Shown one piece after another: positions 3,746-19,120 of a DNA stretch of 64,000 nt. A program made the translations under genes and the position numbers. Source of the DNA: Candidatus Poribacteria bacterium (lineage in GTDB: Bacteria > Poribacteria > WGA-4E > WGA-3G). Below the pieces are notes generated by a model. The model made no database searches and was not told the origin of the DNA. It was given only the letters and a program-made list of their open reading frames with translations. The stretch is from assembly GCA_965242965.1 (NCBI GenBank), contig OZ251518.1, positions 3,904,001 to 3,968,000 on the forward strand, written 5' to 3'. Within the stretch, counting starts at the first letter, position 1. Each line of letters begins with the position of its first letter.

Positions 3746-4025
3746 CGGAAAACCAATTCTATCAAAACGGCGCGCGACGATTTAGCCGGTGATGCCACTC
3801 CCAACGCGACAGCAGACACTTAACACCGGCACTTTAGTTAGGATACCATATTCAGATTTCATTTGCAAATGAAAAAATCACTTGACTTCAAACACATTGC
3901 ATGAAATAATAAAAAGGCGACGCGGACGGCACCTTCATGTCTCGAAAAATTGCCAGTCTCTATTTCTCTGATGAATCTCAATTCATACAATAGAAACCGG
4001 CGGAGATGGAATGCGAACATTTTTG

Positions 4026-12663: not shown

Positions 12664-15600
12664 CTACTCCCGCTGCTTGACTTCGCCGAACGTTGTCAAT
12701 GAACGATTCGCCGGGGAAACGGGACCCGGTAAGTAACGTGTCCGCAACGTCTCCGGCCGACCGCCTAACGAAACCTCTTCGATCTGGTAGTAATACTCGA
12801 CCCCAGGTTTCGCAGATGTATCGGTGAACGTGTAAGTTTGACGCTCGCCTGTCGTGCCGGCACCAGCTATCAAGACAGGATTCAACAACGTAAATCCACT
12901 CTCGCGTTTCAAGCTGCGACGCAGATTGAAACCGGCATTGTCGACTTCCGACTCGGTTGTCCAAGTCACGACAACGGAACCGGCATCGGTACGCGACACC
13001 GTGAAACTAGACAATTCCACGGGCAAAGCACCGCCTTCCCGATACCCCGGCGTGCCAATGTCATCGGCATTGCCGTAATGCAGCGATTCAACTTTGAATT
13101 TATTGAAATGCGCCGCTAATGCCCAATTCGACTTCAACATCCCATCGCGCGCCACCGCGCCTTTATCGTAACGGCGGATGACCGAACTCCGCGCGCCATC
13201 CCTGCGATTCGTGGGCCACACCCAGACAGGCGCATCATCGGTACGACGATTGTCATCGATGTTCCCAACCTCGTCTATCTTCGTTCCGTTTCGATCGGAT
13301 AACTTGAGGTAGAAACCCTCGCCACTTAAGAAGGTATCTCGCGCGGTTTTGATGCGCAGATTCTTCTCGTGCAGTTTGAGCAGGTTGTAAACCCGGTCTT
13401 CAGGGAAGACATCTGCCGAGGAGGCGCGGGCATCGCCTGCCACTATCAAGAGGGTCTGATTCGGTTGAATCACTTTCTCTTGCAGCGTCAACGTGACGAT
13501 GGGTCTGCCAACCAAATCTCCTGAATTCCGATTCTGAATCTCTAACTGCCAGCGATTCAGGTTCAGTGCCTCGGTTTTCGACTTGTTATAGAGTTCGATC
13601 CATTGCGGCAATGTGCCACCCTCGGAATCAAACATGATTTCGCTGATAGTCACCGCACCCTTCGGCGTAGATGCCTCCGTTTTGACAGCACCATTCGGAT
13701 AGCCCGGCGTGCCGGCAGTGGCAGCCGACTTGGAGACCTTTCTGTCATAGCCGATACCGGTAAACGCAGCTTCTGCCCAGGCATCTCTGTGATATCCGAT
13801 AAGATCCGCTTTGGCGCGCTGCCAGACTTTACCGGAACTGAGCGCATCTTCGGTGGCATCACCAGGTGCCTCAAGCACCTGCAGGGGCCAGACATGCGTA
13901 TCGTAGTCCCCGGTTTCATCGCGGATAAAGGCATCCGTATCGCTGCCGCCGCCCCCGGCGACATCAATGAACGCCTCATCCAAGCCGAGTTTCTCCTTGG
14001 CATTCCGGAGAATCAATAGGAATTTGCCATCATCCGGCAGTGAAAGGCCTGCATCCACTAAAGATGCATGCGATAACCCTCTGTTTTCTCCGCCGGCGAG
14101 TGGCGTTTTATCCGACGCGCTGTTTGTTATCAACAACAAGCCGTTCGCCGGCACACTCACATCCGGGAAGATGATAAGCGAGGTATCTTCCTTTTTTCCA
14201 TCGGCGACAACGGAGAGCTCCCAGTCTTTCAGGGAGACATCTGAACCGCTGACGTTGCGGAATTCTAGCCAGTCATTTGCTGCATCACTGCCATTGCCGA
14301 GCTCGTTGAAAACGACAGGAGAAAGCGGCACAGCCGATGCAACTGCCTTTGAGACAGTGTCATCCTGCGGAATGTAAACCACCGGGGTCACCGCCACATC
14401 AAACGTTTTCAACGGTTCAGAGGATGAATCCGGGACCTGTGCAGCCTCACCCGGTGCCATCGCCGGATCGGCGGTACCACGACGCTCAAGCCCTGATGAA
14501 GCCTTCAACGTCGTCTCACGCGGCACAGCTAAACTGTTGATACTGGCAATCTCCACGCTCACCGATGCAGCCGGCGGATCGGTCGCTTGCAAAACATACG
14601 CAAACGGCACAATCGTTGAACCCGAACGCTCCTCGCCTTGCTGCCACACGGCGTGCCGCGCATTCGCGGCTTCTCGCGCGCCGAGATAGATTGTCACATA
14701 CGGCGGGTTTTCGCCTTCATACGTCAATCCATCCTGCGCAAACGGCACCTCAACGGTGATCTCGCTACCCGCAAGATATGCACCGCCTTCCGGCTCAACG
14801 ACTTTAATCTCATCCGCATCTACCTGCACCGTGTCTACCTGCACCGTAACAGTGTTCGATGCCAAATTGCCGAGCGGGTCAGAGTAGTCGGCAAGCACCG
14901 TATCGGCGGGCACCTGGAACGTCATCTCCCCTTTAAAGCCGAGCGGGGGCACTACCGTCACCGGATACTGCAGCCACGCATCCACCGCGTCAGGACGGCT
15001 CACCGTCACCTTGCCATCCCCAACATCTGCAGACAGCGTGGTTTGAAGCGTCGTGAATAGCTCTTCGTTCGCCAAATCATGAGACGCAGCGGTTTTCACA
15101 TGCCCGGCTGCAGTGTAGTCCTCCTGGAACCGCAATGTCAACGTAAACGTCCCGGTTTGTGTCCCCGATGGCCCGTCTATCACTGTCATCGCGGCGACAG
15201 CGTCCTTCACTACCGCCGGATAGGCGATAGTGCCCTTGGCGGTAGTATCATACGTGGGCGGAAAGTAGTGAGGGAACTTGAGCCGCTCATCCCTATAAAA
15301 ACCCACCGAGACACTATAGTGCTGTACGCGACCATCGGCATCGGCCTTCTGCTTCAGCTTCTCCACGTCACCGCCGGTGTAGTCCACTATGTCATCAATT
15401 ATTGGGAGGTAGTCAAGGAGACGGTCGCCGTTTCTGTCAAAATGCTCTGGCTTGAATACGAAATCCCCCCCGTTTTGGTAACGAGTATCGCCTCCCCCAA
15501 TACGCAGCCTGTGGTGACGAAATTGATCCTTCTTGTCGTCAGCGGGATCGACGGTGTCGGGACTCTCTGGGTAGGGGAGGAATGTTTCTCCCGCCTTGAA

Positions 15601-17112
15601 AAGCGCAGACGGGTCCATAAAATCTGCCCATCGCTTACCCTGTTGCCCTTCATCAGAAGTATCACCAAATGGCACGCCAAATCCAAACTCCCCAGCGTGT
15701 AGCCCTAGGATTTGAGCGTATGTGTAACCGTTGGGGTATTTCAGACCGCCAAGGAAGTCGCCGCCGATGCGACCGTTGGCCAATAAATCAGCGTATTCGT
15801 AATTAATACCGACACGCGGACGGTATGGGACATTGAACGGGGCCACGATAGTGTCGCCATCCCCCTCCAACCATCCGTCGCCTTTCTTCAACCGATTCAA
15901 GGCATCTGCATGTTCCTTTGTCACCGTAAATTGGTAGACGACGGTATGGTAACCATCCACATCGGGATGCCCCCACTCCGTAGCGGTAACCGCATGGTCG
16001 GCATTGAGGTGGTTTACGCGGCCATCCTGTGTTATCCGTTCCAGTGGATAATTGGGATTCAGTCTCCCTACCCCGTCAATGCCCACGGCTGCAATTACCG
16101 TCCCGCCGTTAGCATCCCGGAGGGAATTGCGCGCCCAGATAGTGCCTGGCGGGTTCGCCTTTTGACCATCCTTGAACCATAATGGCAATTCATTCACCTC
16201 CCAGGGGACATCACGGGCAACGGAGCCGCCAGTGGATCTGCTCCAGGGGGCATTACGGCGATCGGCATAGAAACCGGGGCCGCGAGTGAATTTGGTGTTA
16301 CTAAAGAGTGCCGGAAGCGTTAGAGGCTCCTCCTTGGTAGGATCTATATAATAACTCCTCGGATCCAGACCAGGCGCAGGATCTATGAATTCCGTTACCA
16401 CTTCATAGTAAGTCAGTTTGACGTTGATGGCGATGGCGACGATATCCCCGGGGACTACCCACGTATTTTCCTCGGCGGTGACACGCCCACTGTTGCCGGG
16501 TTTGTTCGGATCTTCCAGCAGGCCGCCGCTCGTGGGATCGCTGGGACCCCCACCGGGATCGATATTCACCCAGAAGTAGGTATCCGTCTCGTTTGCCAGT
16601 TGCGCTGTGCCATTCAAGAGCTCCTCATACTCTGTCCAGAAGGATGGGAACAGCCGCGCGCGCCTGCTTTCAAAACCGGGCGGCGTAACAACATAATTCG
16701 TGTCAGTGCCTACCTTGTGATAGGTACCGACCTGCTGCAGTTCTGGCGCTCCCAGCTTCGTGGTTTTCGGATTTTTATAGATGCGTATCCACTGAATCTG
16801 AAAATAATCCGGCGGGCAAGCTGTCAACCCGCCACCAAAGAAGGCATCAATACCCGTAGAATGGATGTGGGCGTTACCGGATCCGGCGGACACGCTGTGG
16901 GTCGAATCGTTCGGCAGCGTAATCGCTGACTTCTGCAATTTATGGGTTGCCAGGGGCAGGCCCAGCCAATTATTATCCGGGTTGCCCTCGGTGCCCTGGA
17001 TGATATCAAAGGCATCACTCCCGATATCTTCTTGCGTCCATGTGTCGTGGCTCTCTCCCGGCGGTGCAAGCACCGTCAGCAGCCCGAATGTGAGCAGTAG
17101 GCAGCCTATCAA
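12664..17112 (-). CDS. giant secreted lamin-tail-domain/Ig-like protein; true start probably at 17345 via frameshift
   Basis: two LTD-like domains (VVFNELGN..DWLE; TISEIMFD..QWIELYN), LPVELSSF domain, LTTFGEVK tail; no SD at TTG 17112, frame open up to 17229. Confidence 0.85.
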   Translation of the reverse strand: MIGCLLLTFGLLTVLAPPGESHDTWTQEDIGSDAFDIIQGTEGNPDNNWLGLPLATHKLQKSAITLPNDSTHSVSAGSGNAHIHSTGIDAFFGGGLTACPPDYFQIQWIRIYKNPKTTKLGAPELQQVGTYHKVGTDTNYVVTPPGFESRRARLFPSFWTEYEELLNGTAQLANETDTYFWVNIDPGGGPSDPTSGGLLEDPNKPGNSGRVTAEENTWVVPGDIVAIAINVKLTYYEVVTEFIDPAPGLDPRSYYIDPTKEEPLTLPALFSNTKFTRGPGFYADRRNAPWSRSTGGSVARDVPWEVNELPLWFKDGQKANPPGTIWARNSLRDANGGTVIAAVGIDGVGRLNPNYPLERITQDGRVNHLNADHAVTATEWGHPDVDGYHTVVYQFTVTKEHADALNRLKKGDGWLEGDGDTIVAPFNVPYRPRVGINYEYADLLANGRIGGDFLGGLKYPNGYTYAQILGLHAGEFGFGVPFGDTSDEGQQGKRWADFMDPSALFKAGETFLPYPESPDTVDPADDKKDQFRHHRLRIGGGDTRYQNGGDFVFKPEHFDRNGDRLLDYLPIIDDIVDYTGGDVEKLKQKADADGRVQHYSVSVGFYRDERLKFPHYFPPTYDTTAKGTIAYPAVVKDAVAAMTVIDGPSGTQTGTFTLTLRFQEDYTAAGHVKTAASHDLANEELFTTLQTTLSADVGDGKVTVSRPDAVDAWLQYPVTVVPPLGFKGEMTFQVPADTVLADYSDPLGNLASNTVTVQVDTVQVDADEIKVVEPEGGAYLAGSEITVEVPFAQDGLTYEGENPPYVTIYLGAREAANARHAVWQQGEERSGSTIVPFAYVLQATDPPAASVSVEIASINSLAVPRETTLKASSGLERRGTADPAMAPGEAAQVPDSSSEPLKTFDVAVTPVVYIPQDDTVSKAVASAVPLSPVVFNELGNGSDAANDWLEFRNVSGSDVSLKDWELSVVADGKKEDTSLIIFPDVSVPANGLLLITNSASDKTPLAGGENRGLSHASLVDAGLSLPDDGKFLLILRNAKEKLGLDEAFIDVAGGGGSDTDAFIRDETGDYDTHVWPLQVLEAPGDATEDALSSGKVWQRAKADLIGYHRDAWAEAAFTGIGYDRKVSKSAATAGTPGYPNGAVKTEASTPKGAVTISEIMFDSEGGTLPQWIELYNKSKTEALNLNRWQLEIQNRNSGDLVGRPIVTLTLQEKVIQPNQTLLIVAGDARASSADVFPEDRVYNLLKLHEKNLRIKTARDTFLSGEGFYLKLSDRNGTKIDEVGNIDDNRRTDDAPVWVWPTNRRDGARSSVIRRYDKGAVARDGMLKSNWALAAHFNKFKVESLHYGNADDIGTPGYREGGALPVELSSFTVSRTDAGSVVVTWTTESEVDNAGFNLRRSLKRESGFTLLNPVLIAGAGTTGERQTYTFTDTSAKPGVEYYYQIEEVSLGGRPETLRTRYLPGPVSPANRSLTTFGEVKQRE

Positions 17113-17186
17113 AACGGAGTGGATGCGTGCGGCGGACCGCGGGTGTCCCCCGTCCTTCTGCGCCTTCCTGCTGAGAGTTGCAGGAG

Positions 17187-17345
17187 TTAACGCGCGTAGA
17201 TGAGAGGGGGGGTCTTCAGGTTGGACGCGTCACCGGCGGGCGCATGCGCGCGGCATCTTTGCAGCGGGTGCTGCAATAACGCGGTGACGGTAGGTTTCAG
17301 GCGGACAGCAATGCCCGCGAAAATGAAAGAGAATAGGAATCTCAT
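17187..17345 (-). CDS. 52-aa leader ORF ending TPPLIYAR*, containing a C7 tract
   Basis: SD GAGGAG before ATG 17345; overlaps the main ORF frame (-1) across the poly-C at 17206-17212. Confidence 0.65.
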   Translation of the reverse strand: MRFLFSFIFAGIAVRLKPTVTALLQHPLQRCRAHAPAGDASNLKTPPLIYAR

Positions 17346-17401
17346 TAGTTTTTTCTCCTCTAAATTGATGTAAAAATGATTGAAAATTAAACACTGTATT
17401 A

Positions 17402-17430
17402 ATTATACCATTTTTTCACGTTTTTGTCAA
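17402..17430 (-). promoter_or_regulatory. consensus sigma70 promoter
   Basis: TTGACA-17 nt-TATAAT with extended -10 TG. Confidence 0.85.
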
Positions 17431-17442
17431 ATTAAAAATTAT

Positions 17443-18075
17443 GAGCAGGATTTTGAGCAGGATTTTCAAGATTTACACGATTTCACAGGATTAGGTCTGT
17501 GGCTACGGTGAAACGGAAACGGCCTTGCATACCGTAGCGCGGGGGCCTGTCCCCCGCGAGCGTTCACGTGAAAACATCTCTTCAGGTCCTTTAGGTCCTG
17601 CATGTCTATAGTATCCCCGACCTCAAAAAACGCTAAGGTCCTTTAGGTCCTTAATAGTCAGGAGATGCAACGTCGCGAGGAACATTAAGGTCCTAAAGGA
17701 CCTTGAGGGGTATTGCATCGGCGCGCGCTATAGACATTAAGGTCCTACGGACCTTGAAGAGACTGTAGTTCGGGAGCGCCCGCTCCCGAACGGGTCAAGA
17801 GCAGGCGCTCTTGACCTACAGAAGGGATGCGCGCACGCGTGCCCGATGGCATAGCGAGGGACAGGCCCTCGCCCTACGGTAAACGGCACGTTTTTCCCCC
17901 GCGAGCACCCGATCCGCGCGAAAAACGCACGCAGACAAAGGCTGTTTCCTCGATCGAGGCATGGCGAGGGACAGGCCCTCGCCCTACGGTGACGACGCTA
18001 TAATCTTGCTAATCGTGATAATCCTGATCATCCTGCTCCAGATTACACACCTCAAGACCGAAGAACTCTCCTACT
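17443..18075. repeat. composite REP cassette (AGGTCC palindrome at 17577-17762)
   Basis: GTAG REPs, four AGGTCC hairpin units, flanking 9-bp GATT/AATC repeats. Confidence 0.9.
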
Positions 18076-19120
18076 GCTGCTCAGGGAAGGGAGCGCGGAT
18101 GTCGTAGCGGCCCTCAACGAAGACAGGCAACATGCCGCCTTCCACGAGGAGATTCAGCGGATTCGGGCGCGTTGTCAGCGGGAACGTCACAACATTCTTG
18201 ATTCGCAACGATTCGTAAATCGCCATCAGAATCTCTATCGTGCAGAGCCCGTGCTTGCCGGCGTTGCGATGTTCGTCAATATCGCCTTCAAGCCATGCCA
18301 ACATTTCATCAAACTGATTGGGTTCGCTTTGGCGCGGCTGAATTGTCTGCCAGCCAGCGGCTTTGCTGTTGAGCAATTCAATGGCACCATTGCCGCCGCG
18401 GCGGAGTTGACCATCGTCACCATAGACGACATCGCCGCGGAGTGCAGGTTCCGGCAGGTCGCTTTCGTAAACGCCGCGGATGCCGCCTTCAAAGCAGATT
18501 TCCGCCATGCAAAGGTCTTCGCAACGGACGCGGCGTTCCCACCGGTCGGTGAGACGTGCGACTTGTCCGATGAGCCACAGCGGTTCCGGATCACCGAGGA
18601 TGTAGCGCATCTCGTCGATTTCGTGTGTGCCGCGGTTCAGCAAACCGTGTCCATCGCGGCGGAGCATCGCTTGTGGCTGTCCGATTGCGCCTTCTTGGAT
18701 GAGCCGGCGCGCCTCGCAGTTTTGCGGACTGAACCGCCGCTGATGCCCGACGACCAGTTTCACGTCGTGCTTTTCACAAACGTCCATCATGTCCTGTGCA
18801 TCGCCGACAGAAGCGGCCATCGGTTTCTCGGTAATCACGCCGAGCACGCCACTTTCGGCGGCGGCGATGGTAGGTTCAGCGCGAACGCTCTGCCATGTCG
18901 TGATGCTGACGATGTCCAGGTCTTCCTTGTCGCACATCTCGCGGAAATCCGCGTAGTGCGTCGGGAGTGAGAATTCGTTGGCGAATTTCGCGGCGGATTC
19001 AGGGCTGATATCCGATGCGGTGACGACTTGTGCGCGCCCGGTGCTGGTCCAATTCCGCGCATGCGAGCGTCCCATGCCGCCGCAGCCAATAATGCCGATG
19101 CGATAGGTTTTGTCTGCCAT
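18071..19120 (-). CDS. Gfo/Idh/MocA family oxidoreductase
   Basis: IGIIGCGGMG, EKPMA, GHQRRF, GTHEID. Confidence 0.92.
   Translation of the reverse strand: MADKTYRIGIIGCGGMGRSHARNWTSTGRAQVVTASDISPESAAKFANEFSLPTHYADFREMCDKEDLDIVSITTWQSVRAEPTIAAAESGVLGVITEKPMAASVGDAQDMMDVCEKHDVKLVVGHQRRFSPQNCEARRLIQEGAIGQPQAMLRRDGHGLLNRGTHEIDEMRYILGDPEPLWLIGQVARLTDRWERRVRCEDLCMAEICFEGGIRGVYESDLPEPALRGDVVYGDDGQLRRGGNGAIELLNSKAAGWQTIQPRQSEPNQFDEMLAWLEGDIDEHRNAGKHGLCTIEILMAIYESLRIKNVVTFPLTTRPNPLNLLVEGGMLPVFVEGRYDIRAPFPEQQ

Follow-up and report, generated by a model that had tools for sequence, protein, structure and literature searches.

The C7 tract in a short leader ORF upstream of a large gene for a lamin tail domain (LTD) protein of Candidatus Poribacteria is probably a slipped-strand, DNA-level phase-variation switch, the copy in the window (the whole analysed stretch of 64,000 nucleotides, positions 3,904,001 to 3,968,000 of contig OZ251518.1) being in the OFF state. 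Plain observations are the frame geometry, the lack of a conserved independent start, the intact ORFs, and differences in tract length by which cassettes that are otherwise identical come to be in different frames. As judged from sequences, the family of modules to which this tract belongs is large and conserved, and reaches far beyond the single locus of the original prediction.

The leader ORF and the large LTD gene

The locus is read on the minus strand and comprises the following features:

17425-17430, minus strand: -35 hexamer TTGACA (sequence reading), the same in 13 of 13 cassette copies
17402-17407, minus strand: -10 hexamer TATAAT, 17 nt from the -35 hexamer, kept in 13 copies and in congener G001
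17355-17360, minus strand: Shine-Dalgarno (SD) sequence GAGGAG of the leader ORF; A(A/G)AGG(A/G)G in every cassette copy
17187-17345, minus strand: leader ORF (P0001), ATG 17345, 52 codons plus TAA (17189-17187)
17206-17212, minus strand: C7 tract, ACC CCC CCT (Thr-Pro-Pro) in the leader frame, the putative frame gate
17186-17191, minus strand: conserved GTTAAC containing the leader stop codon, 14 nt past the tract
17166-17185, minus strand: small hairpin TCCTGC/loop/GCAGGA immediately 3' of the leader stop (MFE folds)
17147-17151, minus strand: G5 run, predicted by the MFE fold to pair with the C tract, also present in cassette families A and C
17113-17229, minus strand: linker between the tract and the hydrophobic segment, open in the -1 frame and without a canonical start codon
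17110-17112, minus strand: TTG, first canonical start in the large frame (1482 aa), unconserved
17065-17115, minus strand: hydrophobic segment VLIGCLLLTFGLLTVLA, putative signal or anchor (judged by eye)
12664-17229, minus strand: large ORF with 1521 open codons and with the LTD domains close to its C-terminus
13264-13671, minus strand: best-scoring lamin tail domain stretch (Pfam), open-frame residues 1187-1322

The original prediction had described a perfect promoter at 17402-17430, an SD sequence and an ATG that lead into a 52-codon ORF, and a C7 tract in the short stretch where the leader frame and the frame of the large gene overlap. The promoter hexamers and their spacer are indeed found on the minus strand, the SD, ATG and TAA coordinates hold base for base, and the tract lies within the overlap of the two frames, which extends over 17229-17187. 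It forms codons 45-47 of the leader ORF and is thus a homopolymer in a translated frame near the 5' end. Also the large gene is placed as had been claimed, in the -1 frame relative to the leader, limited by a TGA at 17232-17230 on the 5' side and by a stop at 12666-12664, and without a conserved start of its own. Its first canonical start, TTG 17112, has no SD before it, lies within the hydrophobic segment, and is TTA in the paralog copy C1:3449642 and TTC in congener G002, which supports the view that a frame change at the C tract is needed before any LTD protein can be made. In no cassette copy is the -1 frame, which is the frame of the big gene, interrupted between the tract and the hydrophobic segment, and this fits a required frame change.

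In the N-terminal region of the large ORF, a segment RSAARIHS is followed by 17 hydrophobic residues (by eye), and a Pfam scan of the large ORF found no domain besides the lamin tail domain (PF00932; two stretches, E 1.8e-21, with 77 bits where the gathering cut-off is 34.3). The hydrophobic N-terminal segment and the LTD domains together suggest a surface protein.

The switch would operate at the level of translation. The promoter, which looks like a constitutive sigma-70 promoter, and the strong SD would load ribosomes at ATG 17345. With C7, these ribosomes would read Thr-Pro-Pro and five more codons up to the conserved TAA, and no LTD protein would be formed (OFF), while with one C more, or two C less, the same ribosomes would continue through the linker, the hydrophobic signal or anchor and the 1,460-residue LTD body (ON). 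Since some ten LTD paralogs, the window gene included, have this cassette in common, slippage during replication would change the set of paralogs that is displayed by a cell. We infer that the switching would be reversible in a population and that the LTD protein is located at the surface.

Cassette copies and their tract lengths

The 371 nt from 17100 to 17470 occur 13 times in the genome with 82-96% identity. In 11 copies the leader ends at TAA and the big gene is in the -1 frame, one copy (C1:4262524) has a C8 tract and is fused to give 1562 aa from the leader ATG, and one copy with C6 is in the third frame. Because of these 13 copies and the excess of G/C homopolymers at frame junctions, the arrangement of promoter, leader and tract is beyond chance. 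Tract lengths among the cassettes are C6, C7, C8 or C10, and the fused C8 copy has the same flanks as a terminated copy with C10 (C1:2589646), identical over 22 nt upstream and 58 nt downstream. The cassette is also found in two congeners (G001 and G002), each of which has one copy fused in frame, and there two pairs share the same flanks, differ by one C, and are in different frame states (L019 with C8, fused, and L020 with C7; L025 with C9, fused, and L024 with C8). The repeat number thus toggles the frame between otherwise identical sequences, all of these length comparisons being between paralogs and not between alleles of one locus. One extra C would give a continuous fusion, as had been expected: C8 would fuse the window copy, and the C8 paralog is fused. 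The original prediction had left the choice between DNA slippage, transcriptional slippage and a -1 ribosomal frameshift; DNA slippage is now the best supported of these options, since natural copies that differ only in the number of C are fused in frame.

About ten diverged LTD paralogs share the cassette, and in nine of nine compared the ORFs are intact. For the computed pairs, which are the window copy with the other eight paralogs and one further pair, dN/dS is 0.39-0.47 at a dS of 0.30-0.52. The cassette is 91-96% identical among seven of the eight paralogs compared, the gene bodies 72-85%, and C7 is found in five of six type-(i) cassettes despite a gene-body dS of at least 0.3.

The large gene is not always continuous with the -1 frame as it is in the window. 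At C1:2222321, a giant LTD protein is preceded by a strong promoter and by a leader ORF in which GTTAAC comes after a C9 tract, but there the LTD gene begins in another frame, with an SD and an ATG of its own 415 nt past the tract. Similarly, in families B and C and in three family-A copies an SD, a start and a signal peptide belong to the downstream gene itself, and in the sister families the main gene is unfused and uses a separate SD and start 200-670 nt downstream.

A poly-C and GTTAA module in the genome and the phylum

Of all G/C tracts with at least 7 bases in the genome, 64 of 224 are followed by GTTAA, where 5.8 would be expected, and the distance from tract to GTTAA peaks at 13-14 nt. 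The same module of poly-C, about 13 nt and GTTAA is present in 66 genomes out of a sample of 151 in the phylum, and the stop motif YGTTAA(C) is kept at a fixed distance from the tract across the whole bacterial family. In the 64 modules, the leader frame is the TAA frame in 39 cases, the -1 frame in nine and the +1 frame in six, with ten unclear; the family-B copies are in the TAA-terminated state in 14 of 14 cases. Three other genera present a different picture. In genome G076 of genus g2, 11 near-identical modules have 7 to 23 C between identical flanks, and the 15 modules examined are distributed over the three frames as 4, 4 and 7; the frames are 9/3/3 in G004 and 7/4/2 with two unclear in G009, so that the three genomes combined use the frames 20, 11 and 12 times, two being unclear.

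The tail of the leader with Pro-Pro, four residues, Arg and stop is common across many families. Its prolines are encoded by CCC codons only, and the residue before Pro-Pro varies while its codon always ends in C, which points to selection for a long homopolymer. The remaining variation follows nucleotide patterns, with YGT giving Arg or Cys, and NAY giving Tyr, Asn, His or Asp.

Some searches were of little yield: a pattern search with the leader ORF in the genome contigs gave only two loci, both in one congener, a search with the N-terminus of the fused paralog gave only two matches, and of 23 loci from a promoter-pattern search of metagenome contigs, 22 were unrelated AT-rich promoters. One metagenome locus (L050) may, by its sequence, be a distant module. 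The idea that in leader-type modules translation in the -1 frame is coupled to the main start was dismissed, as it applies to 9 of 30 modules overall but to only 1 of 16 after dereplication. GTTAA also occurs beside tracts in restriction-modification-like genes, with spacings of 12, 14, 16 and 21 nt, and as several of these genes are paralogs, this was ascribed to chance or paralogy.

Homopolymers, public sequences and what counts against a switch

G/C tracts have a heavy tail at 7 bases and more genome-wide, and the fraction located at frame junctions is 14%, 24%, 52% and 45% for lengths of 7, 8, 9 and at least 10 bases. A/T tracts of 6-9 bases are at frame junctions in 6-8% of cases at each length, flat and symmetric. 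Overall, 35 junction tracts need +1 and 19 need -1 for restoring the frame, and outside the cassettes the two are roughly symmetric.

In public protein clusters, 32 of 37 have a leader peptide of identical length and tail; 28 of the 37 come from ENA assemblies, the longest listed contigs being mostly of 1-20 kb. When clusters with variants are counted (43), 32 are canonical, three fused and eight in another frame. Fused alleles in public assemblies are P0039 (1530 aa), P0042 and P0043, third-frame alleles are P0040, P0041 and P0044, and P0019, P0023 and P0030 are length variants with three additional C that keep the frame. At the window tract itself, no indel of at least 5% was listed in four public runs from three studies, which are represented by short assembled contigs that drop rare variants; where contigs span the tract, they extend past it by 26 letters on one side, fewer than the 31 letters that the rule asks for. 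The search for public runs listed none with RNA. Among the papers listed in a literature search for Poribacteria with homopolymers or phase variation, none was relevant.

Several points count against phase variation. One is that no length heterogeneity was seen at the window tract in the contigs of the four public runs, and another that the copies compared are paralogs. The TAA-terminated state is strongly over-represented in the genome (39 of 64 modules, including all 14 family-B copies, with C7 in five of six type-(i) cassettes), and since other junction tracts are roughly symmetric, this skew goes beyond mutation bias alone. A stop motif at a fixed distance throughout the family is not required by a bare mutational switch. 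Also the presence of intact MutS1 and MutL speaks against it; mutS1 and mutL are both present and intact in the genome, and a loss of mismatch repair as a cause was thereby ruled out.

Alternative explanations

The strong excess of the terminated state, in 39 of 64 modules here and 32 of 43 public clusters, would be understandable if C7 with a terminated leader were the functional state and if ribosomes slipped by -1 on C_CCC_CCU, or RNA polymerase added a C, in a programmed manner. There would then be a steady low level of LTD protein together with the 52-residue peptide, and the fused alleles would be occasional mutants. Such a programmed recoding, the main rival of the phase-variation reading, is doubtful. 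In its favour, in the zero frame ACC CCC CCT contains a heptamer of the slippery X_XXZ_ZZN type (AC C_CCC_CCT), the leader stop is at an invariant position and distance from the tract, the +3 C variants P0019, P0023 and P0030 keep the frame, and intact ORFs are compatible with continuous expression. According to PMC4066793, few -1 motifs are as efficient in E. coli as C_CCC_CCC, and the tetramers C_CC.U and C_CC.C shift when supplied with a pseudoknot. Some copies have a GC-rich stem that begins 6-9 nt past the tract, the arms of which are species-specific (ACGGCCG/CGGCCGT in G001 and GTCCGT/ACGGAC in G002), strong stems being found in some copies only. However, the three other genera spread the module over three frames instead of conserving one configuration, their tracts extend up to C13-C23, well beyond what a slippery heptamer needs, and the C-ending codon before Pro-Pro agrees with selection for a homopolymer. 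As to structure, the fold of the window region including the small hairpin has z = -1.0, an Rfam scan of 16500-18200 with E up to 1 gave two chance-level matches only, and in a helix test with 38 representatives (mean 12.9 versus 12.2) 8 of 200 shuffles were as good, which is weak support for a conserved downstream stem-loop. In a wider form of this idea, which is rather unlikely as well, poly-C with YGTTAAC would be an ancient, family-wide "frame-gated leader ORF" device that is worked here mainly by -1 recoding on C_CCC_CCN. One frame may then stop the ribosome immediately and the other frame or frames may allow translation of the whole leader, and the downstream secreted protein may be turned on by fusion, translational coupling or polarity relief; recoding may be indicated by tracts that are short (C7-C8) and constant across paralogs at a dS of 0.3-0.5.

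If translation of the LTD gene began independently, at TTG 17112 or at a non-canonical codon of the linker, the 52-codon ORF could encode a separate leader peptide that regulates by arrest or attenuation, in the manner of TnaC and SpeFL. The downstream genes with own SD, start and signal peptide in families B and C and in three family-A copies would agree with this, as would the recurrent Pro-Pro, four residues, Arg and stop in many families. Nevertheless, independent initiation is improbable, as TTG 17112 has no SD, is replaced by TTA in one paralog and by TTC in G002, and would start within the hydrophobic core and leave no charged N-region, and as the leader tail is kept as nucleotides and not as residues, with prolines encoded by CCC only. 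That most paralogs are out of frame could also mean that C7 is a fixed inactivating frameshift in a redundant, silent or decaying copy, but 1521 open codons, a dN/dS of 0.39-0.47 at a dS of 0.3-0.5 against eight paralogs, and the cassette identity of 91-96% in seven of eight paralogs against 72-85% for gene bodies make this very improbable. It is hardly to be expected that the tract is in truth a C8 that was under-called, although the genome is in two contigs and is thus probably a long-read assembly, and most cassettes need +1. The A/T homopolymers of 6-9 bases at junctions are flat and symmetric at 6-8%, -1 and +1 are needed by similar numbers of junction tracts outside the cassettes, the same terminated leader is found in 32 of 37 public clusters, 28 of the 37 coming from ENA assemblies, contigs from other runs span the window tract without a gap, and congener G001 (210 contigs) is terminated in four of six copies.

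Comparison with known systems

Slipped-strand phase variation at the C7 tract would most resemble the translational phase variation of Neisseria pilC (poly-G) and opa (CTCTT), where families of surface-protein genes carry the repeat in the 5' part of the coding sequence. Shared would be the constitutive transcription, a repeat just past the start codon, an ON/OFF state of expression that depends on the frame, and a gene family whose members are alike in the 5' region and differ in the body. Unlike in these cases, the tract here belongs to a leader ORF with a conserved stop at its end, the putative signal or anchor segment is about 50 codons downstream of the tract, the sister families have the unfused main genes, and the host is an uncultured sponge symbiont and not a pathogen. 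The -1 programmed frameshift sites of bacteria, such as those of dnaX and of IS3-family transposases, likewise have an in-frame X_XXZ_ZZN heptamer, a zero-frame stop soon after it and a -1 fusion product, but here tract length and frame state vary among copies and genera, and no well-supported stimulatory structure was found. Like in Campylobacter and Helicobacter with their poly-G/C contingency loci, there are many G/C homopolymers of at least 7 bases per genome, also in restriction-modification genes, whereas mutS and mutL are present here. In H. pylori, the variable G-repeat in the mRNA leader of tlpB is targeted by the sRNA RepG, according to PMC8295292. The position of a variable homopolymer in a 5' leader is similar, but the tract here differs in being translated and in having no known sRNA partner.

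Significance for symbionts and annotation

Phase variation is known mainly from cultured pathogens. In this lineage of uncultured sponge symbionts, a single conserved switch module is repeated dozens of times and precedes genes for large proteins of the secreted type. The module of promoter, leader ORF, poly-C and fixed stop suggests stochastic cell-surface variation in symbiosis. It is compact and portable, and a mutational switch, programmed recoding, or both can be directly tested in reporters. For annotators it carries a warning, as the annotated starts of genes behind poly-C modules are probably wrong.

Architecture of the locus

Re-reading of the minus strand confirmed the original prediction of a promoter, a GAGGAG, a 52-codon leader ORF, a C7 tract and a large ORF in the -1 frame in all details:

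17430-17425, minus strand: -35 element TTGACA, read from the sequence
17407-17402, minus strand: -10 element TATAAT, 17-nt spacer from TTGACA
17360-17355, minus strand: GAGGAG, read from the sequence
17345 to 17187, minus strand: leader ORF (peptide P0001), 52 codons from ATG 17345 to TAA 17189-17187
17212-17206, minus strand: C7 tract
17229 to 12664, minus strand: large ORF, in the -1 frame of the leader, first open position 17229 after TGA 17232-17230

The earliest canonical start within the large ORF is TTG 17112, a position that reads TTA in the copy at C1:3449642 of the source genome and TTC in the congener G002. The sole Pfam match of the large ORF is the lamin tail domain (LTD, PF00932), found in two stretches, and a comparison with NCBIfam gave no match. 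The adjoining genes are ordinary metabolic ones, coding for a GFO/IDH/MocA oxidoreductase, an MR/MLE enzyme and a xylose-isomerase-like TIM barrel.

A highly abundant short repeat (17500-17700, also 17441-17480), matched hundreds of times by blastn genome-wide, lies immediately upstream of the promoter; it looks REP- or MITE-like and contains GGGACAGGCCCCCGCGCTACGG-like units as well as series of heptamer-like AATCCTG/AATCTTG units. In the predicted fold of 17147-17212 and of the sister cassettes, the C tract pairs with a G4-6 run some 45-55 nt further downstream, with the post-stop hairpin inside; such pairing is predicted for many copies of the leader-ORF families A, to which the window cassette belongs, and C, and these two families also have the motif CTCRGCAGGAAGGCG in common.

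Copies of the cassette and state of the LTD genes

The cassette of promoter, leader ORF and poly-C (371 nt of 17100-17470) occurs 13 times in the 5.70-Mb genome, with identities of 82-96%. In 11 copies the leader stops at the same TAA inside cGTTAAc and the downstream gene is in the -1 frame, the tract being C7 in seven, C8 in three and C10 in one of them. Of the other two, C1:4262524 (C8) is an in-frame fusion of 1562 aa counted from the leader ATG, and a C6 copy uses the third frame. The flanks of the fused copy are identical to those of C1:2589646, the copy with C10. LTD-type paralogs follow ten of the cassettes, and the other three precede other genes with their own SD and start, which are also in the -1 frame. 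Also two congeners have the cassette, with four terminated and two fused copies in the 210-contig assembly of G001 and one of each in G002, and within the locus pairs L019/L020 and L025/L024 the difference is a single C. The public protein P0045 (1530 aa) is an LTD allele of the type (ii) cassette subgroup whose annotated start is an ATG in the leader region, before the tract and in the main-gene frame, and some alleles may thus have an alternative in-frame start.

All nine LTD paralogs compared are intact. Protein identity is 72-83%, dS 0.30-0.52 and dN/dS 0.39-0.47 over nine pairs, eight of which include the window copy and one of which is C1:2589646 with the fused C1:4262524. Relative to the eight paralogs, the gene body of the window copy is 72-85% identical, whereas its cassette is 91-96% identical to seven of them and 80% to the eighth. 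Judged by its sequence, the window LTD gene is alive.

A poly-C and GTTAA module

Genome-wide, G/C homopolymers drop sharply in number from length 5 to 6, and the distribution beyond is heavy-tailed: 224 tracts have at least 7 bases. When these were scored as poly-C and GTTAA was counted within 45 nt, it followed 64 of the 224 tracts (5.8 expected by chance), with a distance peak at 13-14 nt, as compared to 5/224 upstream of the tract and 14/584 after C6 tracts. The linked tracts fall in several leader-ORF families with a tail of Thr/Ser-Pro-Pro, four residues, Arg or Cys, and stop, and the leader is in the TAA frame in 39 of the 64 modules, in -1 in 9, in +1 in 6 and unclear in 10. In 56 modules GTTAA lies 9-16 nt past the tract. 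Their median open length downstream is 398 nt in the -1 frame and 34 nt in the +1 frame; the former is the longer one in 47 of them and, after dereplication, in 26 of 34 representatives.

On C1 of the source genome (e.g. at 1635662, 2222321 and 4501672), at least two more leader-ORF families carry the module, B with about 15 copies and C with about 12. The main gene of these families lies 200-670 nt past the tract and brings its own SD, ATG and signal peptide. This main start is reached by the -1 frame in 15 and by the +1 frame in 4 of 30 own-start modules, but close coupling of the -1 frame to it was found in only 1 of 16 after dereplication. That the -1 frame is often open to the main start suggests a putative gating by leader translation.

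Of 151 genomes of the phylum that were sampled, 66 have C7-N13-GTTAA, among them 54 of the 99 from the same family; with the pattern reversed as a control, each genome gave 0-3 matches. A metagenome contig (L050, near position 3780) has a TTGACA-N17-TATAAT promoter followed by a C13 tract and GTTTCACATTCGTTAA, an arrangement similar to the module consensus in other genera.

Mutational switch, recoding or assembly error

From each of three other genera, 15 modules were fetched.

Frame of the leader in 15 modules per genome
Genome: TAA, -1, +1, unclear
G004: 9, 3, 3, 0
G009: 7, 4, 2, 2
G076: 4, 4, 7, 0

In G004 (L052-L066) and G076 (L082-L096), both non-terminated frames are open for 45-140 codons past the tract, and the TAA frame ends after 3-5 codons; two of three frames may be productive in these modules. 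In G076, tracts range from 7 to 23 C with identical flanks, and these lengths and the scatter of frames are the signature of slipped-strand hypermutable repeats. Both also exceed what a slippery heptamer needs, and DNA-level phase variation, with presumably reversible switching, is therefore ranked first and is the probable explanation. The strong excess of the terminated state in the source genome, the C7 that is unchanged across old paralogs and the invariant stop motif speak against a purely mutational switch and for programmed -1 recoding at the C tract, with a functional terminated state, as does PMC4066793, where C_CCC_CCC ranks among the -1 motifs of highest efficiency in E. coli. A stimulator structure is weakly supported (fold z = -1.0; 8 of 200 shuffles equally good in the helix test). 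Recoding in place of mutation is rather unlikely; the two may act in combination. The genome has both MutS1 and MutL.

That the frame break at C7 is merely an assembly error is highly improbable. G/C tracts lie at a frame junction in 6% of cases at length 6, 14% at 7, 24% at 8, 52% at 9 and 45% at 10 or more, whereas A/T tracts do so in 6-8% whatever their length, and symmetrically; overall, 35 junction tracts need +1 and 19 need -1. Searched against public proteins, the leader peptide gave 37 clusters, 32 of them with the canonical terminated tail and 28 from ENA assemblies, for which the longest contigs listed mostly measure 1-20 kb, and a search for longer forms found three fused and three third-frame alleles. 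No tract indel at 5% or more was seen in contigs from four runs of three studies, which are short assembled pieces that fall below the flank length set for bridging the tract.

Relation to known systems

Translational phase variation is known from pilC/opa, and poly-G/C tracts are known as contingency loci. The window locus would follow the same logic, but unlike these it has a conserved portable module and a leader ORF whose early stop is fixed. The module is used as a direct fusion at the window locus and elsewhere ahead of own-start genes, and it is spread through an uncultured symbiont family. In H. pylori, an mRNA leader is known to carry a variable G-repeat (PMC8295292). A literature search on Poribacteria found nothing relevant among the papers listed. 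In the source genome, poly-G/C tracts of 8-9 bases are also present at frame junctions in other large genes (C1 797287, 950259, 2101457, 2542105, 3319143, 3566779 and 3590607), the paralogs of which have C7, C8 or C9, consistent with further candidate phase-variable loci.
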